Shown: piece by piece, positions 4,770 through 64,000 of the stretch
How the letters are laid out: each line of letters begins with the position of its first letter
How positions within the stretch are numbered: position 1 is the stretch's first letter
Assembly (NCBI RefSeq): GCF_030684315.1
Contig: NC_081354.1
Span: 19,400,226-19,464,225 of the forward strand
DNA length: 64,000 bases
Source: Stegostoma tigrinum
Lineage: Eukaryota
Direction of reading: 5' to 3'
Notes under the pieces: model-generated
What the model saw: only the letters and a program-made list of their open reading frames with translations
Databases searched by the model: none
What the model was told of the DNA's origin: nothing
Position numbers and translations under genes: made by a program

Positions 4770-5190
4770 GTCCTCAAGGGTCCTTGAATTTACCAGAATA
4801 CTTCCAAGGTTGAGGGATTATAACTATGAGCTAAGGTTGGAGTAGTTCATTGTTGTTTGAAAATTAGACTGAAGAGAAAATATGATGATCACGTTGCTGC
4901 TTCTACAAAATCTGGCAACACTAATTAAGTTTTGGGCAAGAATAGCAGAGATGAGGAGAAAAATGACGACAAGATAGGATCTTAAAGAAAAGTCGACAGT
5001 AATGATTTGGAACTTGCTGCCAAGGAGGACGGTGGAAGCAATGACATTGAAATTATTTCAGCAGGAAGTTGGACAGGCACTTGAGGAGAATAAACTCTCC
5101 GGGTTACCAAGTTGTGGGTAAATCAGAACAGACCTACAACAAGTAGCTACTACCTGAGCAGGCTGAATGGCGTCCTTCTGCACTCTAGTA
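4770..5190 (+). mobile_element. Degraded CR1 LINE 3' end
   Basis: TTTACCAGAATACTTCCAAGGTTGAGGGATTATAACTATGAG, TGGAACTTGCTGCCAAGGAGGACGGTGGAAGCA and terminal GGGCTGAATGG-like motif typical of CR1 3' ends. Confidence 0.6.
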
Positions 5191-5739
5191 AGTTGCCGAA
5201 TGTAACCCTAAGTGACAGTCTGAGCGAAAAAAAACTAGTTTCCAAGGAGCCAATGGTAGTTCATTAAAAAAAATTCAGACCCAACGTACACTGGCACTAA
5301 GACCAGTGAGCTCACAGTTGCAGCCATAGCAACTCTCACACTTTACCTGCTTGTTTCACACTACCGACTTAACACAAGAAAAAAAAGACTGGGACAAAAC
5401 TCCACCTGTAAAGAAGGTAAGCCAATATGCATACTCACCTGCAACACACCCAGTGTCTAACTAGGAAACCATTCACAATAGACTCGAGAATCAAATCTGT
5501 GCAACTCATCCAGTTATTAGGACTTGCAATGGCTCACGTCGCTTTATTTTGATGTGCGCCATTCTTAATAAACATGTATTTAAACTGATTTGCAGTTTCG
5601 GGTCAGGTCTTTGAGACTGTTTACTCCGTGATATATATACACGCATGGGGGCGTTCTGGTGTATTCTCGTGAGAATTTAACAGTCGTACAATCATTTCTG
5701 TCATTTATTTACACCGTTCGCATGATACATCAGGATTTC

Positions 5740-7560
5740 ACAGAAACCATCACTCCCCCACCTCGCGCTCTCATTGCTCGCATCGAGTGCCCGAACGGTG
5801 GACGAAAGCAAAACGCAAATCCCAGAAACCGAATCAAACTCACACGGCGAACAACCGTTCCGCGAACCCGTCCGTCGTCGAACTTTTTGGTTGGGGGGGG
5901 GGGTTTGTGTGAAACGAAGAAACGCGTCCCGTGACGAAACTGCCAACGGCGGCCTCTGTCGCTTCGCTTCGAAAGGCCAAGCTGAGGAGGTCGCTGGTCT
6001 CAGTCGGAGGGTCGCTCGCTCCCTTTCACCGGCCCTGCGGAGGGAGAGGGGGCGTACTGCGGTCCGGCGCGTGCAGCCTGCATGGTCCGTTACAGCAGTC
6101 GCCGGCACGAGCGCGCCGCGGAGTGATCGTGCCGCGAGGGCGGGAGGGGAAGGGAAGGGTAAAATAGGCGGTGCAGCGGCCTGTCGCCTGAACCTACGTG
6201 TTTCGCTCACCCTCCTCCTCCCGTAACAACCGTCTTCCCTCCCTTCTTTGGCGACGGAGGCCATCGATGTCTCTCTCTCTCTCGCTCTGTCGACGCTGCG
6301 GCTTTCGGCAGTGCCAGAAACAGGAAAAAAGAAGGGACGGGAGGGGGAGGGGGAGGGTGGGGGGTAAAAGTGGGAAACATCTATCAAATCGTAAGGGCAA
6401 AGCCGAGAGAGAGTTAGGTACACACACACGGGAGTTCGGGGTCTTTCTTTTGGGGGTGAGGTGGAGTAGGGTTGAGGAAAAGAAGAAAGAGAAACGAGAG
6501 AAAGAAAAACATACACAGGCGATTCCCTCCCGTCTCTGTTTTGCCAGAAGCCGGACACTTTAGAGAGATCGGGGCCGCGCATCCTTTCCTCCTGTAAAGC
6601 GGGGAGGGGGAAAAGAAATCAAGGTAACATTCACCGGAAAGAAAGGGGCGCCAACCTCTGGTGATCAAACAGTTACTCGTCCCCCTTCCCCTCTCTCTAC
6701 CGTTAGAGGAGGAAGAGGGGCAGGTCGGGGGAGAGCCGGTTTTGCGTACTGTGGGGTGGGGGGGGGGGGAGGAGAGGTTAAACCGGCCCGGTGGGGGTTG
6801 GGGGGGGGTACGTGCGTCTGTGTTGTTAAATGTCAGTCCGGCGGCCTCGAGCTGCGTCAGAACGGTTTAAAAATTCAAAAAACAACAATCGCTTTATTCC
6901 GACTGACAGGCTGGTTAAAGCGTGGGATTTGAATCGTCCCTGTCACACGGGGCGGGCGCCTCTTTAGGAACACCAATGCCGTTTTGTTTTTTTAAAAGAA
7001 AATATGTATGTTATATGTCTACATACACACACGTGAATGGTCAGTGAGCGAGTTGGCTTATTGGAATTAAGAGCAAGTGCGTATGTCTTTTATTACCGCC
7101 CCCCCGCCCGGCGTTTGTCCTTATCCGCTGTGGGGCCTCACTGAATTAATGGCTATTGACAACCAGACTTGCTGCCTTTTTCGGCCATTGTGACGTTTGA
7201 GGATTGATGGGGCCTTCCGCCAGTGGCAGGACGGGACCTCCGTTACGTCGGAGAGCCTGCGTCGCGGCCTGCCCAATGGGCGTTCGCGAGAGGGGCGGGG
7301 ACCTTGCTTCGCCATCCCCGCCTCTTGTTCAGGTTAGGTGGAGGAGTCACAGACCGAGAAGGTGGCGGGGTGAGAGGAAAAGGAGAGAAGAGCAGTGCGG
7401 GTCGGTTGCAGTCGGTTTTAATAGATTTCCTTCCCCCGCACCCCTCCCCTCACCCCAGGAAAGCTTCCCATCGAAGAGACTCTGAGCCAGCCTCCTTGCC
7501 GTCCCCTCTTTCGCAAACGCAGTGGCGTGTGTGAGATGTCTGAATAATGCGTCAGGACCG
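5740..7560. promoter_or_regulatory. CpG-island promoter / first-exon region of KIAA0232
   Basis: Sharp rise in GC and CpG density against an AT-rich, CpG-depleted background; GC boxes (~6949, ~7096, ~7292), CCAAT/ATTGG (~7060, ~7273), CRE half-sites TGACG (~5932, ~7191), E-box CACGTG (~7030), ETS CCGGAA (~6634); candidate donors AAG|GTAACA (6623/6624) and CAG|GTTAGG (~7332). It is the only CpG island upstream of the KIAA0232 exons. Confidence 0.85.
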
Positions 7561-10500
7561 GGTTTTTAAACCCTCTTCATAGCGCGTACTCCCAAGTTGA
7601 GCAAAAGGTCAAGTTCAAAAATTGGTGTTAATTTTTTTTGGAGACATTCCGATTTCAGTTTAGTCTCCCTTTCATTTGGATGTTTAAGTATTTAATAAAC
7701 CGGTTTGTCTAACCTGGTATCCTCCCACCACCACTTGAGACATCCAGTAGCTTTTCTAGCCTGTCACGTTCATTTTCTATTCACAAGGGCATTAAACCGC
7801 TTGGAATGAGCCTTTCTGCCCTAGATCTTACTTTGTTTCTGCGTCTCAGGTTTCTTTATTCAAGTAGCTTACCCAATTTGAGACTAAGGATTGCATCTAA
7901 AACAGGATTTTATTTTCTCATCGACGCGTTGTTGGTTGGGCAAGGTTGTTAACGGGAAATAATCTGTGTGGTTGGATTGAGGCCGTGGTTTGGGGTCCAC
8001 CTGGTGCAGAGTCCACTCATCGGGTTTGTCGACATTCTGAGCAGAGTAGTGTATCTTTCGGTGACCGGTGACGCGAGACCTCTTTTTTTTCCCCCTGCAT
8101 TCGAAACGTATAACATTTTTCACCTTCACACGTGGGTGCTGTCATTAGTTTGACATTTGGGCTTTAAATAAGTGGTAATGAGCCAAATGCCTTGCCCTTG
8201 TCCAGTATTTTCGGTTTTGCACAGAACCACGTGATTCGTGTAATCTTAAAAACAAAACTCCTTAAATCCTATTTAATGCCGATCATGTTTTCTGTTTATT
8301 TTCAAACTATTCCCTGGAGACTCCAGGTTAATTTTGTGGTGATTTGTCCGAGTTCTGAAATAGAATGTTTAATTATGTTATCAGATTGTACTGTTTTGAT
8401 TTTTTGCAAATTTGTCAAATGATTAGACTTTTTAGTACTTAAGTTGATTTAGTTTTTTTGACATTTGGAAATTTGGTTTTGCAGTATTGAAGTATCTAAG
8501 TCTATCCCAAAGTGTTAAATGTTCTGTCCAAAATGCATCAATACAATTTTAGCTCACTTTGTAAGTTAGATAAACACTGGTGTATGAATGCTAAAGGACA
8601 AGTTCTACCTTTTATCAATGATAGTTATAAAATTGTTGGGTTATACAGGCCTTGAGTGGAATGAGATAAACTGTATAAAACCACTTATTATGGAGTGACA
8701 AGGCTTGTTGCTATGCATCAGCTGCACATTGCAAAACTATTACGACATGCCTTTTTGTTTCCTTGTGATAACACTTTCCTTTCATGTCAGTATGGATATA
8801 GGTTTATGAAGTTGCTTGCAAGAATTCTATTTGGTTGCCTTGTTTACTTAAATCAAAATAATACATAATAGAAACTATTAGCAGTGCCTCTCCTATGATG
8901 GTTTGTGATCATAATTTTTCACTCCTGTGAATTCTTCCAAGAATAATTCTGAATTCTGAGGGAAAATGGGAAAGAATATGAAATAGTGACTCGCAACTTA
9001 TAGCTGTTTGATGTGTTGCGTAATGTCGATTCTGTATTGTGATATCAACACTGAGGTTTATTTGTATCATTAATGAAAATCTATAGGGTGTAAGTGTACT
9101 CATGATTTTTGAATTGCACGGTATATTTCTTGGTCTGTGATCTTGAATTTGCCACGGTAGGAAATGCTGTGTTAAGTTTGCATTCCTTAATTGCTGGCAA
9201 GGATTGTTGGGGCTGAATGGCCTTTTATCTGTGCTATATCATCTTGTATTTGCCTACAGTACAATTCTATATGGAACTGTATTTTATCATCAGCATTGCA
9301 GTTACTTGAAAGTCTGTGGGAGTTGTCAGTAATGCTGCAGCGCATGCTCTGAATTCATGCACTTGTGAATTTTCTGGATAATTTGTTAGATTGACATTAC
9401 TGTGATATCGGTTGATGAACTTGTTTTGCTCTAGCTTAAGTGAATATTTTACCCGTAGCTTAAGTGATTTCCACATAAAGAAGCAAAATTATTGAAAATA
9501 TGATTTATTTGGAGACAAATATGATATCCTTTGACCACACCTGAAATCTTGGTGTATTTTTGGACTTATCCAGCATGGAAAAAAAAATACTCTTGGCCTG
9601 TACTGTATTGCTTATATTCAAATATATGTGAATGATTGTAACTACATCCATTAGAAGAGTGCACAGTCGGAAGAAAATGTTTTTCTTTGTTAGAACCAGT
9701 TTATTCCTTATGTGATCATAATTTGGGGACCCCTTAAATGTATAAATTCATCTCATGAAATATTTCACCGTATTTATGTTTTGCTTTATTTTATTGCACT
9801 TATTAAAAGAAGTCTTTTGATTTCCAACAAAATGCTAATTAGTGCAATTGTAATCTGCTTCCTCAGAGCTATGGACTGCAAAAACATTTAGACAATTGTA
9901 GCTGCAGTTGCAGTGCAGAAACGGCATACAAATAGAGCTGATTTGTTAGTTAGATTTGACAAGATACAACTGACCTCTATTTATGAAAAGTCTGTTTTCA
10001 AATTCATGCTCGATTGAACATGCTATCCTATAGCATGTGTAGTATACTGCATCTTATTTTTGTTTGAACTATGCTCTAGACAGTTCATCAACTTTTTATT
10101 GTACATTACGATGTTATGTTTTACCTTTATTCGGAGAAATGAAAACGAATGAATGCCAATTGTGCAAGATATCGCCAAAGAGAGAGCGAGGTCTGACAGT
10201 ACAACAGAAAAGAATGCGAGAAATTTCTAAAAGATGCCCTCTATTACTCTTTTGACAAGTACATTTTTAGTTGCGTGATGGAGGTTATTCTTTACCTAGT
10301 TCTAGGAAATTTACTGGAGCCAGCAGGTAATGTAAGCATGAGGAACACTAGAGCAAAACAGTTCCTAAAGCATAATTAGCTTTGAAATCAAGCCGAGGAG
10401 GAAACAACTGAGATGACAAGTTAAAGTATAAAAAGAAAAATAAACAAAAAGCAGCAAGGAATTGTGGGGGTTGGGTAAAAGGGTAGAATTTAAATGTGAC

Positions 10501-15042: not shown

Positions 15043-15959
15043 AAACATCTGATCTGTATTTTTTTTTATGGCAATCATTTTCAGAAAGTTGCAGGGTTCA
15101 AAAGCAGTAATCACCAGACAAATGTTTTGGATGAGAAAAGAATCACTTGCCACCTCAAGATTGTATCTTTTTCAAATCAATCTTTATTTACACTATGGAA
15201 TACAATGAACTGTGCTGCAGTTAAGGAAGAAGAGTCTGCTGGATTAAGAATTTTAGCTTCACCTCATGAATATTACTAGTCTGTATTCAGGACAGAATCA
15301 TGAATGTCCTTTCACTCTATGAATCATGTTTGGTATGTTTTCATTGCAAAGCATCTGACAGTAATTTCAGATATACGCTTGAATCAGCTTAGTGTGAGTG
15401 ATATTAATCATAGGTTGTGTCTTAGCAGATGTAACTGTTCTTGTCATAAGTCCAGTTTTGATGGTATTAGGCAAGAATTTTCAAAAAATGATTGGGAGAG
15501 TCGGTTCACAGGTAAATTGCTTGGCACGCTCTTTCAATATTTTTTCTAAATATTTTCATGCTTTTTTATAGGTTAAATGTTCACAACAGTTAACTCATTT
15601 TTAGATGATTTAATTGTTCCTGTGTACATGATTGTAGTTAGTGTTTTGCTCGTGCAGTTGGATAGATATTGTCCTACTGTGTGTCATAACCGTTGTCAGG
15701 CAGATGTTTTGAAGGTGAGTATGTGGTCAGAGTACATTTTAGGAACACCAACTAATGTGGTTTAAGATCAGATATATGTATTAAATGAAAAGGTTATTAA
15801 CTTAGAGATAATTTCATTCAATACAGGATAACTATTGAATAAACAGGCATTTCTTAAAATATTTTGAAGACCATTATTTTTATCACAGATTCCATTCCCC
15901 AGCATCCTTTTCGGTCACTGTCCCCTCTAACTGTCTGAAACTGAACGAGACTTGGTGTT

Positions 15960-18473
15960 AACAAAGTGTGAAGCTGGATGAACACGGCAGGCCAAGCAGC
16001 ATCTCGGGAGCACAAAAGCTGACGTTTCGGGCCGAGACCCTTCATCAGAGAGGGGGATGGGGAGAGGCTTCTGGAATAAATAGGGAGAGAGGGGGAGGCA
16101 GACCGAAGATGGAGAGAAAAGAAGATAGGTGAGGAGGTAGGGAGGGGATAGGTCAGTCCAGGGAAGACGGACAGGTCAAGGAGGCGGGATGAGGTTAGTA
16201 GGTAGGAAATGGAGGTGCGGCTTGAGATGGGAGGAACAGATAGGTGAGAGGAAGAACAGGTTAGGGAGGCGGAGACTAGCTGGGCTGGTTTTGGGATGCA
16301 GTGGGGGGAGGGGAGATTTTGAAGCTTGTGAAGTCCACATTGATACCATTGGACTGCAGGGTTCCCAAGCGGAACAGGAGTGCTGTTCCTGCAACCTTCG
16401 GGTGGCATCATTGTGGCACTGCAGGAGACCCATGATGGACATGTCGTCTGAGGAATGGGAGGGGGAGTTCAAATGGTTCGCGACTGGGAGGTGCAGTTGT
16501 TTATTGTGAACCGAGCGGAGGTGTTCTGCAAAATGGTCCCCAAGCCTCCACTTGGTTTCCCCAATGTAGCGGAAGCTACACTGGGTACAGTGGATACAGT
16601 ATATCATATTGACAGATGTGCAGGTGAACATCTGCTTAATATGGACAGTCATCTTGGGGCCTGGGATGGGGGTGAGGAAGGTGGTGTGGGGCAAGTGTAG
16701 CACTTCCTGCGGTTGCAGGAGAAGGTGCCGGGTGTGGTGGGGTTGGAGGGGAGTGTGGAGCGGACAAGGGAGTCACGGAGAGAGTGGTCTCTCTGGAAGG
16801 CAGACAAGGGTGGAGATGGAAAAATGTCCTGGGTGGTGGGGCTGGATTGTAGATGGCGGAAGTGTCGGAGGATGATGCGTTGTATCCGGAGTTTGGTGGG
16901 GTGGTGTGTGAGAACGAGGGAAATCTTGTTGTGGCGGGGGGGGGGGTGTGAGGGATGTGTTGCGGGAAATGCGGGAGACGCAGTCAATGGCGTTCTCGAG
17001 CCCTGTGGGTGGGAATGTTGAAGTCCTTTAAGAACGTGGACATCTGGGATCTGCGGGAGTGGAATGCCTCATCCTGGGAGCAGATGAGGCAGAGGAATTG
17101 GGAATAGGGGATGGAATTTTTGCAGGAGGGTGGGTAGGAGGTGGTGTATTCTAGGTAGCTGTGGGAGTTGGTGGGCTTGAAATGGACATCAGTTTCTAGC
17201 TGGTTACCTGAGATGGAGACTGAGGTCCAGGAAGCTGAGGGATGTGTTGGAGATGGCCCAGGTGAACTTGAGGTTGGGGGGATGGTGTTGGTGAAGCGGA
17301 TGAACTGTTCGAGCTCCTCTGGGGTGCAAGAGGTGGCGCTGATACAGTCATCAATGTAACGGAGGAAGAGGTGGGGTTTGGGGCACCTTGCACCCCAGCC
17401 TCAAGTTCACCTGGGCCATCTCCAACACATCCCTCACACCCTGCCCCCGCCACAACCGCCCCAAGAGGATCCCCCTCGTTCTCACATACCACCCCACCAA
17501 CCTCCCGATACAACGCATCATCCTCCGACACTTGCATCATCTACAATCCGGCCCCACCACCCAAGACATTTTTCCATCCCCACCCTTGTCTGCCTTCCAG
17601 AGAGACCACTCTCTCCGTGACTCCCTTGTCCGCTCCACACTCCCCTCCAACCCCACCACACCCGGCACCTTCTCCTGCAACCGCAGGAAGTGCTACACTT
17701 GCCCCACACCACCTTCCTCACCCCCATCCCAGGCCCCAAGATGACTTTCCATATTAAGCAGATGTTCACCTGCACATCTGCCAATATGATATACTGTATC
17801 CACTGTACCCAGTGTAGCTCCCTCTACATTGGGGAAACCAAGTGGAGGCTTGGGGACCACTTTGCAGAACACCTCCGCTCGGTTCACAATAAACAACAGC
17901 ACCTCCTAGTCGCGAACCGTTTTAACTCCCCCCTCCCATTCCTCAGATGACATGTCCATCATGGGTCTCCTGCAGTGCCACAATGATGCCACCCGAAGGT
18001 TGCAGGAACAGCAACTCATATATATTCTGCTTGGGAACCCTGCAGTCCAATGGTATCAATGTGGACTTCACAAACTTCAAAATCTCCCCTTCCCCCACTG
18101 CATCCCAAAACCAGCCCAGCTTGTCCCCGCCTCCCTATCCCTTCCTCCCACCTCAAGTTGCACCTCCATTTCCTACCTACTAACCTCATCCCGCCTCCTT
18201 GACCTGTCCGTCTTCCCTGGACTGACCTATCCCCTCCCTACCTCCCCACCTATACTCCTCCTCTCCACCTATCTTCTTTTCTCTCCATCTTCGGTCTGCC
18301 TCCCCCTCTCTCCCTATTTATTCCAGAACCCTCTCCCCATCCCCCTCTCTGATGAAGGGTCTAGGCCCGAACCGTCAGCTTTTGTGCTCCTGAAATGCTG
18401 CTTGGCCTGCTGTGTTCATCCAGTTTCACACTTTATCTTGGATTCTCCAGCATCTGCAGTTCCCATTATCTCT
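15960..18473. mobile_element. Penelope-like retroelement (family 1) as an inverted head-to-head pair with TSD
   Basis: Left arm (minus, 15960-~17385) encodes the RT motif FLRYIDDCI (17341-17367) and GIY-YIG endonuclease (IYCIHCTQCSFRYIGETKWRLGDHFAEH); right arm (plus, ~17390-18473) is its inverted copy; 13-bp TSD GAGACTTGGTGTT at 15947-15959 and 18474-18486. Frameshifted and 5'-truncated. Confidence 0.92.
16018..16050 (-). ncRNA. Minimal hammerhead ribozyme-like motif
   Basis: Minus strand CTGATGA-AGGG TCTCGG CCC-GAAA-CGTC: CUGANGA and GAAA cores, short stem II, palindromic ACGT stem III as known for Penelope minimal hammerheads; stem I is weak; activity untested. Confidence 0.6.
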
Positions 18474-19159
18474 GAGACTTGGTGTTGTTCCCTGACTGTC
18501 TCCTGACATGGAGAAAATGCTCTGCCAGTATTAAAAAAGCATTCCTACCTCTGTGCCAGAAGCTCAAAATCCATTCCAGGGCTTCATAGACGCAGAAGGT
18601 ACATTCTTAACGAGGCCAAATAGATCAGTCAGCATTTTGAAAACATTAACACCTTGATTCTGACAGGCAGTAAGAACAGCCTCCTGGCTAGCCATGTTTT
18701 ATGTAGGCTTCTAAGTCTTTAATTGTGACCACTACAATGTCCTGTACCGTGAAAGGCCTAGCTTCATACTGTCAATTTAGTTTACCATCTTTGGAAAGCC
18801 CTTGCACTGAGTAAACGTTTTCTCAAAGACTTGTATGCAAATTGTTGGATCTATCCTTAATTTTTTGACTGCTTGGTTTTGTTAAAATAAATGCATGTTT
18901 GGGGTGATTGTCTTAGCACTACCACTCTATCATTTAAATATGATGCCAAAAGTATGACATGTTTGAACTTTTAAATTCACACCTGATGGAACTGGTTCCA
19001 CAAGCTCCAGAATTAAGTTCATGGAGAAATGCTATCTGCTTCAGCTGATACCAGTCTGTTCTGATCTAGACCATTTGATAAGTGTCACCTCAAAGGTTAT
19101 TGTGAAAAATAAAAGTTGTGCAGTGGATTGCATATTAACAAGGATTTTTTTAAAAATGG

Positions 19160-20302: not shown

Positions 20303-20308
20303 TTTATT
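20303..20308 (-). terminator. Candidate polyadenylation signal of the actin-like gene
   Basis: TTTATT on + (AATAAA on -) ~360 nt downstream of the stop codon at 20668. Confidence 0.4.
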
Positions 20309-20667
20309 GTTAGTACTACATCATTTCAACTGCATTTTGATGTTGAACTGGCAGTGTAAATTTGAGGTCGAGGACTAATTAATTCCAGAGGGAGGTGGAG
20401 GGAAATTTTCTGTAAAAGACACTCTTGCACTGATTCAGTTTACAACCAATCCAGCATCATACCATCTAGTTTGTAAAGTTCTTGGGACTGGAGTTATTGG
20501 CCTCTCTTGAAAACTTGATAAACTATAAACACAGTGAACAGATTACACTCAAAAATAAACTAAGCTCCTCATGGTTGACCATCAAACAAAATCAGTATGA
20601 AATTCTGACTGTTTCTTAAGGTATTTGATCTTGTGCAGTCAAAATTAAATAGTCGCATAAGTAATTC

Positions 20668-21786
20668 CTAGAAACATCTTTTGTTAATGATAGCTGGCCC
20701 ATAATCCCTGTAATCATTACTCGTGACCCACATATCCTTAAAGGCTGTCAGGCTGGTTAAAATTGAGGCACCCATCCAAACCGAATTATTCCTGTTTGGT
20801 GGTGCAATGACTTTAATTTGAAATCCAGTGGGAACTTGGAATTTAATCTCCTTCAGCAACCTTTCTTCCAGACCCAGGAAAAGAGTAGAACCACCAGACA
20901 GTAAAATGTTGCTAAAGAGATCTTTTCTCAAGCTTCTGTCACATTTTGAAATACTATCATAGATCAACTTATGAATTCCAGGTTCTTCCAAACCTACAAT
21001 GGAAGTTGTGAAGAGTGCTTCTGGTGCTTTGAAGAGTTCCTTTTGGAGTGTGATCAGATTCCCATCAGGGAGTGTATATTCCTGTTGAATGCCATCTGTT
21101 TGACTTTTGCTGTCCAGCTGGGGATCAAGAGCAATATAGCACAATGTTTCTTTGATGTTCTCAAAGGTCTCCTTAGGAATTGTATTTGAAATGTTATGAC
21201 CATTTTCCAATAGAAGTCTCCTCACACTTTCAGTGATGTCATTTCCAGCAAGTTTAAGCCTTTTGACAGCATCAGGCAGGTAGTAGCCTTCATAAATTGG
21301 TACAGCATCTGTTAATCCAAATCCACTATCAAGGACTATTCCCCTCGTCCGTCCTGATGCATAGAGTGCCAGAGTTGCAGGAATAGCCACATACGTAGCT
21401 GGCACATTAAAACATTCAAACATAATTTCTGTCATCCTTTCTCTGTCAATGAAGGAAGTCAATGGAGCAGCGGTTATCAAAACTGGCTTCTCTTTTGGCT
21501 TTATGTGAAGTTCAGATGTGTAAACATGTTTCCAGAGCTTTTCCAAAAGTTCCCAGGAAGTTACTGTACCACGCTCAATAGGGTGTTTTAAGCATCCACT
21601 ACCTCTTTTAGCTAGGGCCTTTTTTCCAAAATACATTTCTGTATGGGATGCTTCACGTGTGTTTCCCTTGACTTTGAAGGTACCTACAATGGATGGTATG
21701 ACTGATGTTGGAATGCTGTCACCAACTAACCCGGATTTGCAGAGCCCAGAACCATTATCTATGATTACATCAGGAATGTCCATCAT
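20668..21786 (-). CDS. Intronless divergent actin-family protein (ACTRT/ARP-T-like), 372 aa, nested antisense in a KIAA0232 intron
   Basis: Uninterrupted ORF from ATG 21786 with actin-fold motifs throughout: IIDNGSGLCKSG, HPIERG, LALYASGRT, VLDSGFGLT, VPIYEGY, LAGNDIT, YTLPDG, NILLSGGSTLF, VIAPP, SVWMGASIL and C-terminal KRCF; no stops or frameshifts. Confidence 0.93.
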   Translation of the reverse strand: MMDIPDVIIDNGSGLCKSGLVGDSIPTSVIPSIVGTFKVKGNTREASHTEMYFGKKALAKRGSGCLKHPIERGTVTSWELLEKLWKHVYTSELHIKPKEKPVLITAAPLTSFIDRERMTEIMFECFNVPATYVAIPATLALYASGRTRGIVLDSGFGLTDAVPIYEGYYLPDAVKRLKLAGNDITESVRRLLLENGHNISNTIPKETFENIKETLCYIALDPQLDSKSQTDGIQQEYTLPDGNLITLQKELFKAPEALFTTSIVGLEEPGIHKLIYDSISKCDRSLRKDLFSNILLSGGSTLFLGLEERLLKEIKFQVPTGFQIKVIAPPNRNNSVWMGASILTSLTAFKDMWVTSNDYRDYGPAIINKRCF

Positions 21787-23544
21787 TTGATATGCAGCGA
21801 TTCTTGTCAATTTGAACAGCAAGTCTTACTTGCCTCTTCTGGACAAGCAGGTACCCTGTAATTGCAACTAGAGCTGAAGACCTATAGCAGGATAGATCAT
21901 TGCCACCAGATGACTCAACAATAGGTAGCTATGTGACCACTGAAAAGAGCCACTTCATAATAACTAACCTTTAAATGACCTGTGACTCATATTAAGACAG
22001 GTCAATAGTCTTGATTCAAAAAAAAGGTTCAGTAAACTGCCAGGTTCTGAAGAGCAGGAAGCTCAAGAGTGATACAAAGGAAGTGCCATGAATTGTCAGG
22101 CTACTTGTGATCTCCAGTCAGGTTGAAAATTAGCTGGAAGCAAGATAGTTTAGTGAATCAGATCTCTGTCCTTGCATTTGGGACTTTATTTCAAAGCAGC
22201 CAGTCTGGTTTCAGTTCATAATGCAAGACAGAACCTAAGTTCATTTCCCTGACATTCAAATTGGTTACAGTCATGAATGCAGATATTTTAGGTTATTGTT
22301 TAGGTAGTGTAAATGGAACTTGTAATTTTTCAATCAGCGATGCATGTGTATCAATCCTTAAATCTGTTTTGAAATTAACTTATTTTTCTATTTTTCAATT
22401 TCTCAATGTGGAGGCGATTACTGTTGGATTAAAGCATATGCTTGAGTTGGTAAACAAACTTTAGGCATGAAAAATGTGTACAATTAGAATGTTACAGCTG
22501 AAATCCTTACAGGTTTGGTTTCAGTTGCCACCTCGCTTAAACTTTTCTCCAACTTGGTGCAGCGCCACATTTTTTTTTTGCAAACTGCTCCGAATCTTAC
22601 TCTCTCAGAATTGCAGAGTGCACTCTACCCAAGGAGAACTCCATCATATAACAGCAGTTGGGAAAAGATGAGCTGCCCTCTTCTTTCTTTTTATGGCTCT
22701 GGCTGATAGAAATAAGTTCAATTTTTCCAGTCAGCATGTTAATGAATGGTTCAGTGAATGGCTAGACAGGTGGATGGGTGAAGTAAGTTGGTAGGATGGT
22801 AGTTAAGTCAAGTGGGGATGCTGAGAGGAATGTGAGAAGTTGTGTGTCCGTGAGGACAGTTGGGACATTGGCCAATTGGTATTGGTTCGGGTCAGGAGGA
22901 AGCATGTTCGTGAGGGGCTTCAGAGTGGGAATTATAGAAGTCCAGTGAGAGTGACAGCAATTCTGTGGTGTTTTATAGGAGTTAAGCTAATGAGTTTAGT
23001 ATATTGAAATTCTAATTGAATTGAAACATCAGTGTGAGAAATGCCCATCAGAGCTTCAAATAGCCTCTGCATTTCCCTCAGGGTGCAACATGTTGGAACT
23101 TCCACAGGTTCCTGAAGCACATCTTTGGTTGTATGTCCAATCTCTGATTCTGAAAGTGGGCCAGTGCACATTTCTATAAAATCCCAGTTGCTTACCTTCT
23201 TTGCAATTTATTTCCAGGTCCTTTTAAAGTAAAACATTAAAATCCCTATATTGAAACTGCAAGTGGTGTCGGAAAACTGTTGGTTTTGTTGCAAATGTAC
23301 AAGTGTGAACTGTATAAGTGTCTCAGTAAATAAGGAGGAGCTGACCTGGTTCTGTAAGAAGTTGTAATCTCCTCTGAGGCATTTCTGCTTGCTGGAACAC
23401 AGTTCCACTTTAACAAGTTGACAGATAGATATCTAATGTGGGGAAAATGTGAAGTTACATGGTGAACTAATTCACTTTTTGGTTGTAAAAATAGAAAACA
23501 AATACTTGTTAAAAAGCTCGACAAATTGGCTTGACATAAGTCAG

Positions 23545-38399: not shown

Positions 38400-38665
38400 G
38401 CTCTACTGCAAGTAGTCCAATTATAACACCATGAAAGGCATCTGAAAGTTTCCAAACACAGGAGAGTTTTGCTCGTTGAGATTATACTTCACCATCTGTC
38501 ATGCCAGTAGAGTGAAACTTCCATCTGTTGACTACTTGCAGTCTGTATAAATGCTCGTCCAAACAGTTGGTCTTCAGTCACTCCTGGGGTGAGCAGCTCC
38601 AGATAATTATTAAATACCAGTAAGAAAAATGTTGCAAGAATTAAGAATGCCGACAACTTAGCTTC
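38400..38665 (+). other. KIAA0232: 5'-UTR part of the KIAA0232 start-codon exon, with four uORFs
   Basis: Strong acceptor CCCTCCTTTCTTTTTTCAG|G at 38399/38400; uORFs at 38431-38445, 38501-38515, 38551-38592 and 38629-38661. Confidence 0.8.
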
Positions 38666-38896
38666 ATGCATCCAACCTGTCCAGTTGTTGTGGAAGGCCC
38701 ACCATCTGAGGGATCCTCAATCTCTTATCAAGGCCTCACATCTGCTCCTGAAATGTCTCTCTTTCAAGCTTTGGGTCCAGTGCAGACCTGGTTAGGACAA
38801 GAATTGGAGAAATGTGGGATTGATGCCATGATCTACACACGATATGTCCTCAGTCTTCTGCTTCATGACAGTTATGACTATGACTTGCAGGAACAG
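38666..38896 (+). CDS. KIAA0232: KIAA0232 orthologue, first coding exon (77 codons)
   Basis: MHPTCPVVVEGPPSEGSS...ALGPVQTWLGQELEKCGIDAMIYTRYVLSLLLHDSYDYDLQEQ, recognised as the conserved KIAA0232 N-terminus; phase-0 donor CAG|GTATGC. Confidence 0.93.
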
Positions 38897-49810: not shown

Positions 49811-50100
49811 TAGTAAGATGGCCGACAAGGCTCCCCATTGCGCAATAGTTCGCAAGGTTAGATCACATGGAAAACAAGGAGACCTAGTCATTTGGACACA
49901 GAACTGACGCAAAGGTGGATGGTTGCTTGTCAGACTCTAGGCCTGTGACCAGCAGTGTGCCACCAGGATCAGTGCTGGGTCCACTGGTTTATGTCATTTA
50001 TGTAAATAATCTGGATGTGAACATAGGAGGTATGGTTAGTATGTTTGCAGGTGACAACAAGACTGTAGTGGACACCAAACAGAGTTACCTCAAAGTAAAA

Positions 50101-51043
50101 GATAACAAGGTGTGGAGCTAGATGATCACAGCAAGCCAAGCAGCATCTTAGGAGCAGGAAAGCTGACGTTGCGGGCCTAGGACATCCATCAGAAATGGGG
50201 TAGGGGAAGGGGGTTCTGAAATAAATAGGGAGAAAGGGGGAGGCGGATCGAAGATGGTTAGAGGAGAAGATATGTGGAGAGGAGGCAAAGAAGTTAGAGG
50301 CGGGGATGGAGCCAGTAAAGGTGAGTGTAGGTGGGGAGGTAGGGAGGAGATAGGTCAGACCAGGGAGGAACGACAGGTCGAGGGGGCAGGATGAGTTTAA
50401 TAGGTAGGAAATGGGGATGTGGCTTGAGGTGGGAGGAGGGGATAGGTGAGAGGAAGAACAGGTTAGGGAGGTGGGAATGAGCGGGGCTGGTTTTGGGATG
50501 CGGTGGGGAGAGGGGAGATTTTGAAGCTTGTGAACCCACATTGATACCATTGGGCCACAGGGTTCCCAAGCCGAATTCCCAAGCAGCCCAATGGTATCAA
50601 TGTGGATTTCTCAACTTCAAAATCCCCCCTTGCCCCTCCGCATCCCAAAACCAGCCCAGCTCATCCCCTCCTCCCTAACCTATTCCTCCTCTCACCTATC
50701 CTCTCCTCCCACCTCAAGCCGCACCCCCATTTACTACCTATTAACCTCATCCCACTCCCTTGACCTGTTGGTCCTCCTTAGACTGACCTATCCCCTTCCT
50801 ATCTCCCCAGCTACATTCACCTTTACTGGCTCCATCCCCACTTCCTTTAATTTGTTCTTCTCTTCTATCCATCTTCGATCTGCCTCCCCCCTATTTGTTT
50901 CAGAATCCCCTTCCCCTCTGCCATTTCTGATGAAGGGTCTTTTCCCGAAACGTCAGTTTTCCTGCCCTAAGTTGCTGTTCATCCAGCTGGCCACGCTTTG
51001 TTATCTCGGATTCTCCAGCATCTGCAGTTCCTATTATCTCTGA
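50101..51043. mobile_element. Fold-back Penelope family-1 insertion, ~450-bp arms, with TSD
   Basis: 50101-50571 (minus) mirrored by ~50585-51005 (plus) plus a tail to 51043; TSD TTACCTCAAAGTA (50085-50097) / TTACCTCCAAGTA (51052-51064). Confidence 0.9.
50927..50958 (+). ncRNA. Minimal hammerhead ribozyme-like motif (sense to KIAA0232 pre-mRNA)
   Basis: CTGATGA-AGGG TCTTTT CCC-GAAA-CGTC with intact core nucleotides; activity untested. Confidence 0.55.
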
Positions 51044-63182: not shown

Positions 63183-64000
63183 TAGCGAGTTTTGAGAAGA
63201 TTTGTAGCTCAGGTTGAGGTTCTGGATGTGAGTTTGCTCGCTGAGCTGGAAGGTTCGTTTTCAGACGTTTCGTCACCATACTAGGTAGCATCAGTGAGCC
63301 TCCGACGAAGCGCTGGTGTTATGTCCCGCTTTCTATTTATCTGGTTAGGTTTCCTTGGGTTGGTGATGTCATTTCCTGCGTTGGTGATGTCATTTCCTGT
63401 TCTTATTTTCTCAGGGGATGGTAGATTGATTTGGAACCAATGTGTTTGTTGATGGAGTTCCGGTTGGAATGCCATGCTTCTAGGAATTCTCGTGCATGTC
63501 TCTGTTTGGCTTGTCCGAGGATGGACGTGTTGTCCCAATCAAAGTGGTGTCCTTCCTCATCTGTATGTAAGGATACGAGTGATAGTGGGTCATGTCGTTT
63601 TGTGGCTAGTTGATGTTCATATATCCTGGTGGCTAGCTTTCTGCCCGTTTGTCCAATGTAGTGTTTGTCACAGTTCTTGCAAGGTATTTTGTAGATGACG
63701 TTCGTTTTATTTGTTGTCTGTATAGGGTCTTGACAAATAAAACGAACGTCATCTACAAAATACCTTGCAAGAACTGTGACAAACACTACATTGGACAAAC
63801 TGGCAGAAAGCTAGCCACCAGGATATATGAACATCAACTAGCCACAAAACGACATGACCCACTATCACTCGTATCCTTACATACAGATGAGGAAGGACAC
63901 CACTTTGATTGGGACAACACGTCCATCCTCGGACAAGCCAAACAGAGACATGCACGAGAATTCCTAGAAGCATGGCATTCCAACCGGAACTCCATCAACA
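63183..64000. mobile_element. Young fold-back Penelope-like element (family 3), running off the window end
   Basis: Minus arm encodes GIY-YIG (NVIYKIPCKNCDKHYIGQTGRKLATRIYEH...AREFLEAW); 63447-63714 is mirrored almost perfectly by 63733-64000; hammerhead-like CTGATG..TACC TAGTAT GGTG AC GAAACGTC on minus at ~63262-63292; 21-bp tandem repeat at ~63360-63399. Confidence 0.92.

Follow-up and report, generated by a model that had tools for sequence, protein, structure and literature searches.

An ACTRT2-lineage pair of actin-like genes in cartilaginous fishes with its own nucleotide-pocket signature

The stretch of Stegostoma tigrinum DNA analysed here (64,000 nucleotides of contig NC_081354.1, hereafter the window) carries an actin-like gene, gene A, which together with a sister gene elsewhere in the same genome, gene B, makes up a hitherto undescribed subfamily of two genes within the ACTRT2 lineage, marked by a pocket signature of its own. 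Gene A is a real, conserved gene under purifying selection, and among the proteins retrieved so far the two-gene set is confined to cartilaginous fishes. Literature searches on actins and on KIAA0232, covering few subscription papers or supplements, found no study of the A and B proteins. The proteins are on record only under automatic RefSeq names, such as 'actin-3-like', and vertebrate actin-like clades without assignment are mentioned, with no detail, in the accessible text of PMC7870945.

Gene A, its sister gene B and their conservation

Gene A is an uninterrupted, intronless frame running from ATG to TAG. Its 372-aa product matches the Pfam Actin family (PF00022, E=1.5e-109), in agreement with the full-length actin-fold ORF of the initial annotation. 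It shares about 50% identity with conventional actins, and its ESM Atlas matches are actin clusters only, with 'actin-related protein T2-like' ranked second. The locus comprises the following features:

20668..21786, minus strand: gene A, intronless actin-fold ORF of the ACTRT2 lineage (ORF, Pfam, tree, structure prediction)
21787..22226, minus strand: candidate 5' UTR of gene A, colinear with the ORF on a single X2 contig (X2 being a run of a related organism, taken as RNA by guess)
20303..20308, minus strand: candidate polyadenylation signal of gene A, the sole AATAAA within 770 nt downstream
21021..21200, minus strand: 180-nt in-frame GT..AG segment in gene A, whose excision would give the RefSeq short isoform of the Hemiscyllium orthologue; splice sites weak
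5001..8000 (about 5-8 kb), no strand assigned: CpG island, putative promoter and first exon of KIAA0232 (itself on the plus strand), from sequence layout
38645..38896, plus strand: open frame with the first KIAA0232 coding exon (DUF4603, E=8e-33)

The large KIAA0232 exon lies past the window end (L071:380-3784). From this layout of CpG island and exons, rather than from a transcript, we infer that gene A is intronic and antisense in KIAA0232 in this genome, in line with the position first proposed for it. Contigs of run X2, which come from a related organism with the tissue unstated, cover 20575-22226 and leave several flanking bins bare, and bare bins prove nothing; those of a second run, X1, cover the intronic flanks as well as gene A and are hence uninformative on expression. 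The acceptor of the 180-nt segment (21021-21024) falls at the junction of two X2 contigs, and no skipping joint is among the joints listed. In four sharks, coelacanth, turtles and a lizard, ACTRT2-lineage genes repeatedly have RefSeq short isoforms that lack about 60 residues in the region of actin 200-267 (P0008, P0009, P0011, P0012, P0385, P0387, P0398, P0174 and P0251), and the segment is either a conserved exitron or an annotation artefact. Elsewhere in the window, 15850-18500, 49970-51040 and 63400-64000 hold broken retroelement pieces of GIY-YIG/Penelope look by eye, which are ordinary repeats.

Protein searches recovered full-length and intact orthologues of gene A in 16 shark, ray and chimaera species, with 77% identity between this shark and the chimaera Callorhinchus. 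Six of the seven in-ORF differences from related runs that were listed, in a listing with 200 further rows, are synonymous. Three X1 contig pieces over gene A, one of which extends some 190 nt upstream of it, differ from the window at 25 of 986 nt with 0 gaps, against 11/177, 38/377 and 18/431 differences with 0, 10 and 27 gaps in three non-repeat flank pieces. The earlier view that intactness implies selection, and that this is an old gene of cartilaginous fishes, is thus borne out. An intronless, intronic and antisense frame would also suit a young processed pseudogene or a chance-intact functionless ORF, a reading that we rejected on cross-species conservation and regard as extremely improbable: besides the intact orthologues and the excess of synonymous differences, synonymous sites between A and B are saturated while dN is 0.25.

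Gene B was found in 12 species from chimaera to rays, the Stegostoma copy lying at G000:C15:76821075-76822190 (76.82 Mb, L002) under the RefSeq name 'actin, clone 302-like'. It is 85% identical between the same two species, and A and B share 63% identity. Both genes are intronless and have the same rewritten pocket (B with Y157, I159 and S183), but they differ in the D-loop and in the subdomain-4 surface, and GC3 is 0.65 in B against 0.36 in A. Whereas A sits in a putative KIAA0232 intron, B has a CYP26-type P450 as neighbour and no identified host gene; this P450 was the only other gene found near B among 54 ORFs scanned, which included about 45 of the longer ones of 240 non-repeat ORFs. The P450 lies 90 kb from B and brings the number of such loci to four, the others being one on C1 and two on C24. 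An open frame of low complexity (548 codons; L050:3022-4665, minus strand, C15 about 76.845 Mb) shares the strand of B, lies 23 kb upstream of it and gave no Pfam or ESM Atlas match. A tblastx comparison of the A and B regions returned mostly repeats.

Placement in the ACTRT2 lineage and origin of the pair

In our main tree (58 rows, LG+G4, with long branches present and ACTRT1 not among the sequences retrieved), A and B form a clade with support of 100/100 on a stem of 0.34. This clade falls with 100/99 support within a group that comprises paralogue C of the same genome, mammalian ACTRT2 and the 'actin-85C-like' genes of tetrapods and that leaves out ACTRT3-type genes and actins, and the same group was recovered in a quick mixture-model tree without mammalian ACTRT2. 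On these trees A and B derive from the ACTRT2 lineage and not straight from actin. Of the kinship first proposed, the relation to testis Arps therefore stands, and direct relation to actin gives way to membership in one of two ACTRT2-lineage sisters. Topologies that place A and B outside the ACTRT2 clade, or join them to paralogue D, were rejected (p-AU 0.001), and the AU topology test also ruled out their descent directly from ACTB or from ACTRT3. Concerning the finer placement, p-AU is 0.29 with tetrapod ACTRT2 (not the best tree), 0.06 with shark C and 0.26 outside all C-type genes.

Paralogue C (G000:C36:21101999-21103111; 21.10 Mb, L003) is followed at 0.59 Mb by a PRDM3/16-type PR exon, which has the same strand. 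Paralogue D (C17:77541955-77543058; 77.54 Mb, L004) is followed by TERC at 50 kb and by a PRDM3/16-type PR exon at 0.88 Mb; an Rfam search within 20 kb of D gave no match, TERC lying farther off. We take these neighbourhoods to match the human ACTRT2-PRDM16 and ACTRT3-TERC-MECOM orders. Source names agree for the skate orthologue of C, which is called ACTRT2, and for a catshark D. Unlike mammalian ACTRT2, C and D are canonical at 12/12 catalytic and back-door sites. On the strict locus test for an ACTRT2 orthologue, a place beside PRDM16, the shark gene found is C, and A lies instead in its KIAA0232 intron. This genome also has intronless ACTL7-like pairs on C3 and C38 and one further actin-like gene on C60; two Stegostoma genes carry the name actin-like 7A, and no ACTL9 was identified in the Stegostoma genome.

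Tetrapods have an apparent tandem cluster of three ACTRT2-lineage genes, judged from adjacent locus tags or a shared contig (proteins P0058/P0405, P0147/P0382, P0106/P0375 and P0175), one parrot model being a chimera of two. The canonical member of this cluster persists in marsupials and platypus. Besides the telomerase-RNA copy on C17, a second full-length match lies at C22:22567746-22568336 (L064), with 122 bits, above the Rfam cut-off.

The initial annotation had suggested an old germline retrogene of cartilaginous fish, of which the age and, among the proteins retrieved, the taxonomic range hold and the retrogene part is unproven. Mouse Actrt2 is intronless (bioRxiv 2026.06.05.730397), as are further actin-like genes of the shark genome, so the parent lineage already had no introns and their absence from A is not proof of retroposition. 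No poly(A) tract is present in the 770 nt downstream of A, and at this age none is expected. The lineage of A moved to another chromosome, a move that fits retroposition or DNA transposition.

All 7 families that we probed (ABLIM, GrpE, JAKMIP, calcyon/NSG, PP2A-B55 motif, amidohydrolase of CRMP/DPYSL type and CYP26-type) have members on both C1 and C15. The order on C1 is CRMP-type (18.21 Mb), JAKMIP (18.45), B55 (18.99) and A (19.42), and on C15 CRMP-type (72.69 Mb), JAKMIP (73.29) and B (76.82), all on the minus strand, which puts A 1.0 Mb and B 3.5 Mb past JAKMIP on the same side and strand. The chance that a random insertion would land no more than 3.55 Mb from any one of the three paralogous anchors is about 0.007, and anywhere on C15 0.025, the anchors having been picked after the first match. 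Given the paralogous chromosomes and the shared side and strand relative to JAKMIP, A and B may be whole-genome-duplication twins, a reading that we moderately favour. Two observations count against it: the C15 B55 gene (68.09 Mb) lies on the opposite side of JAKMIP from the C1 arrangement, and the nearest identified neighbour of B, the CYP26-type gene at 76.91 Mb, is paralogous to a C1 gene that lies at 185.6 Mb, 166 Mb from A.

We put forward more tentatively, and with slightly more doubt than belief, that the twins date from the second vertebrate duplication: an ACTRT2 copy would have come to lie in the JAKMIP region, the pseudo-ATPase pocket would have been fixed in the jawed-vertebrate ancestor, chondrichthyans would have kept both genes and bony vertebrates lost both. 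The pair may then be older than the shark/bony-fish split instead of a chondrichthyan invention. The twin reading requires the C/D split to be an older duplication, and the 1R/2R pairing of the chromosomes is here an assumption; the accessible text of Simakov 2020 (PMC7269912) does not list chromosome pairs. In a comparison of B55 exons, itself weak, C24 and C52 are identical (56/56) and C1 and C15 agree at 48/56 positions, with one shared residue. If this fuller scenario is true, jawed vertebrates would have had the 'mammalian' sperm-head Arp toolkit ancestrally, and A and B would be a natural ATP-locked actin, stable for more than 400 million years.

A redesigned nucleotide pocket and its possible role

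The residue changes of gene A are numbered here after P0098, a 375-aa conventional actin with H73, Q137, D157 and H161 at those positions. In the alignment they lie as follows, all on the minus strand:

21736..21759, minus strand: P1 phosphate loop, D11-K18 kept; M16L as in the ACTRT2- and ACTRT3-position genes
21571..21573, minus strand: H73R in the sensor loop, common to mammalian ACTRT2
21457..21471, minus strand: Pro-rich loop with E107A (21469-21471) and N111T (N111 being the actin phosphate back door)
21379..21381, minus strand: Q137P, codon CCT; the Pro is the protein's own residue 136 and opens a predicted helix (alignment, structure prediction)
21307..21330, minus strand: P2 loop with D154, G156 and G158 kept and with D157F (21319-21321), V159L and H161D (21307-21309)
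21241..21273, minus strand: H173D, D179K and R183N, with R177 kept

Each of the changes reported initially (Q137P, D157F, H161D, H73R, TEAP to TAAP, that is E107A, and a replaced D-loop) is present in the alignment to actin, and N111T, V159L, H173D, D179K, R183N and K336N are added to them here. The D-loop matches actin at 2/15 positions, and the sole gap relative to actin is a 2-residue deletion near 230, with no insertions. Gene A thus lacks the high identity of a conventional actin and has all four of its diagnostic residues (H73, Q137, D157 and H161) changed; among the catalytic and back-door sites as a whole, 6/12 are changed.

In actin, Q137 and H161 organise the attacking water, and the Q137A mutant has low ATPase activity, polymerises and keeps its active-site geometry (PMC10062479, text available in part). 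N111 and R177 form the back door for Pi, whose release is at least 15-fold faster in N111S actin, and R183 contacts D157 (available text of PMC10643162). Deep-sea fish actins are functional with Q137K (accessible part of PMC3896411). A single change at 137 is thus compatible with function, since Q137A actin polymerises and the Q137K actins work. For the same reason, the 'non-filament-forming' character first ascribed to gene A does not follow from the loss of Q137 (PMC10062479, as above).

We found R73, T111, P137, D161 and D173 in 28/28 copies (16/16 A and 12/12 B), and E107, D157 and R183 in none of the 28. S14, K18, D154, R177, E214 and G302 are kept in all 28, and D11 in 27. Actin, C and D have 160 invariant positions in common; the 21 A and B rows examined have all lost 18 of these and all kept 102. 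Losses affect 6/11 gamma-phosphate and back-door positions against 12/149 others (Fisher p=3e-4, an optimistic value, as the site list was drawn after seeing the changes). Interacting residues altered jointly and then fixed point to a redesigned pocket, not to decay. The crippled hydrolysis site that had been suggested is probable, being in line with the fixed Q137P, H161D and back-door changes.

The pair P137 and D161 occurs in 41 of 509 retrieved proteins, of which the window's own protein and named chondrichthyan records make up 39 and the other 2 belong to a skate cluster; no named non-chondrichthyan protein among the 509 has it. No bony-vertebrate protein of A/B type is among the best 120 of 8000 scored candidates, which reach down to about 50% identity. 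P137 without D161 is found in 7 other proteins, so that single change recurs. A divergent actin-like gene in a cytoplasmic-actin cluster (C5:96269441-96270406, L013) has, by eye, an independent Q137P together with H161A.

Predicted with AlphaFold2 from a 145-row alignment, A models as an actin fold with pLDDT 92.7 and Foldseek TM of 0.91-0.97 (about 0.95) to actin structures; a 46-row alignment gave pLDDT 63.7. The alignment being actin-rich, the model attests fold compatibility and not active-site detail. P137 would be the first residue of a helix, where Pro is well tolerated, which suggests that the side chain was removed and the fold left unbroken. D157F/Y and K336N may weaken nucleotide binding.

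Surface counts were obtained by applying contact lists to the alignment table. The barbed groove of A is as in actin at 11/13 positions, with a conservation within A of 0.99, and the W-loop segments 166-169 and 242-245 are kept. Pointed-face contacts are as in actin at 10/31 positions in A against 18/31 in C, barbed-face longitudinal contacts at 14/24 against 17/24, and profilin contacts at 15/26 against 22/26. Residues 199-205 of A agree with actin at 1/7 positions and lateral contacts at 7/23.

We propose that A binds ATP, hydrolyses it poorly and serves as a static subunit in a testis Arp complex of the spermatid head, likely at the pointed-side end of a short hetero-oligomer, a proposal that we regard as evenly balanced when taken whole. 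Its parts differ in strength. Testis expression of A is likely, low ATPase activity and the absence of a dynamic homopolymer each slightly less so, and a role as sperm-head scaffold is marginally favoured. The polymerisation-coupled ATP/ADP-Pi/ADP timer of actin would be lost, since A no longer has the Q137 side chain or H161 and its E107/N111/R183/D157/H73 network is taken apart. The P1 and P2 loops, D11, K18, D154, E214 and G302 would still hold Mg-ATP and stabilise the fold. A kept barbed-face groove and a rebuilt pointed face would, on this inferred geometry, let A dock onto a partner Arp without extending a filament, and so end a short hetero-oligomer with the canonical ACTRT2-, ACTRT3- and ACTL7-like proteins of the same genome. 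In mammals, a single complex of the perinuclear theca contains ACTRT2, ACTRT3, ACTL7A/B and ACTL9 and binds CAPZA3, and the word 'filament' has 0 occurrences in the accessible text of that report (PMC13752377). Several points weigh against the proposal. The mammalian complex is carried over to sharks by homology, over a distance exceeding 400 million years, and its report does not present it as a filament; a change at 137 alone leaves actin functional; D157F/Y and K336N may weaken nucleotide binding; and the barbed face of A is not intact either (I287R, D288S, H173D and the reduced profilin contacts).

The same surfaces could be read differently. A and B might join filaments of actin or of the ACTRT2- and ACTRT3-position proteins and, as subunits that stay in the ATP state for good, stabilise or terminate these filaments, with no dedicated hetero-complex. 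A protein free of insertions, with a small deletion near 230 only and with its W-loop kept, would suit such copolymerisation, and C and D, canonical at all catalytic and back-door sites, could form true filaments; the few actin-like positions in the D-loop and in the lateral contacts make it unlikely. The pocket, for its part, might be a rewired active ATPase, in which D161 would act as an MreB-like acidic helper, R73 would hold the gamma-phosphate, and T111 with the lost R183 would leave the exit open, hydrolysis and release being uncoupled from assembly. The H161 position corresponds to the acidic residue of the MreB 'E...T-X-[D/E]' motif (PMC9597168, available text), an invariant D161 would not be needed in a merely dead site, and the fast Pi release of N111S actin (PMC10643162, in its accessible part) points the same way. 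However, that motif requires E at 137 and T at 159, where A and B have P and L/I/V, and D161 and R73 may simply make a new salt-bridge network, so that we consider this reading more unlikely still.

Improbable as well, and the least probable of these three, is a monomeric or nuclear Arp, which would act in germline or somatic cells as a nucleotide-poor adaptor of a chromatin complex or of some other complex. Loss of the D-loop and of catalytic residues is typical of nuclear Arps. Mammalian germline Arps can moreover be nuclear, as far as the available text of the ACTL8 preprint (10.64898/2026.08.21.746286) and of an ACTL7A/B preprint goes. Against this, A has no insertions of nuclear-Arp type, and its lineage is that of ACTRT2, whose mammalian members are in the perinuclear theca (PMC13752377, in the part available). 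The static subunit of a testis Arp complex is the reading that we retain.

Significance and comparison with known systems

The shark has canonical-site ACTRT2- and ACTRT3-position genes beside a sister pair whose gamma-phosphate network appears to have been rewritten a single time and kept fixed since. The contrast of C and D with A and B offers a natural series in which to test the residues that couple polymerisation to ATP hydrolysis and Pi release, and the series also bears on the need for ATPase activity in sperm-head Arps. The ACTL8 preprint (10.64898/2026.08.21.746286) describes divergent germline Arps as duplicates of recent, mammalian origin, and the genes considered here would place the testis Arp set at the base of the jawed vertebrates.

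The closest known proteins are mammalian ACTRT2 and ACTRT1 (Arp-T2 and Arp-T1), which share with A the clade (tested for ACTRT2), the absence of introns, a length of about 375 aa and the lack of insertions. Mammalian ACTRT2 has H73R in 43/43 sequences and has lost H161 in 43/43 (to C or S), two features common to A, but it keeps Q137, E107, N111 and H173 in 43/43, all four of which are changed in A, and orangutan ACTRT2 is only 46% identical to A. What is distinctive of A and B is therefore Q137P, E107A/T/V, N111T, H173D and the loss of R183. Conventional actin (ACTB/ACTG1) has in common with A the fold, the P1 and P2 loops, the adenosine loop, the barbed groove and the C-terminal CF, and differs from it in about half of its residues, in half of the catalytic and back-door sites, and in the rebuilt D-loop and lateral contacts. 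To an MreB-type active site A corresponds at the acidic H161 position, without the E at 137 and the T at 159. For the geometry proposed here, our working analogy is Arp11 of dynactin, an actin-fold subunit of a subfamily unrelated to A that ends a short Arp filament at the pointed side.
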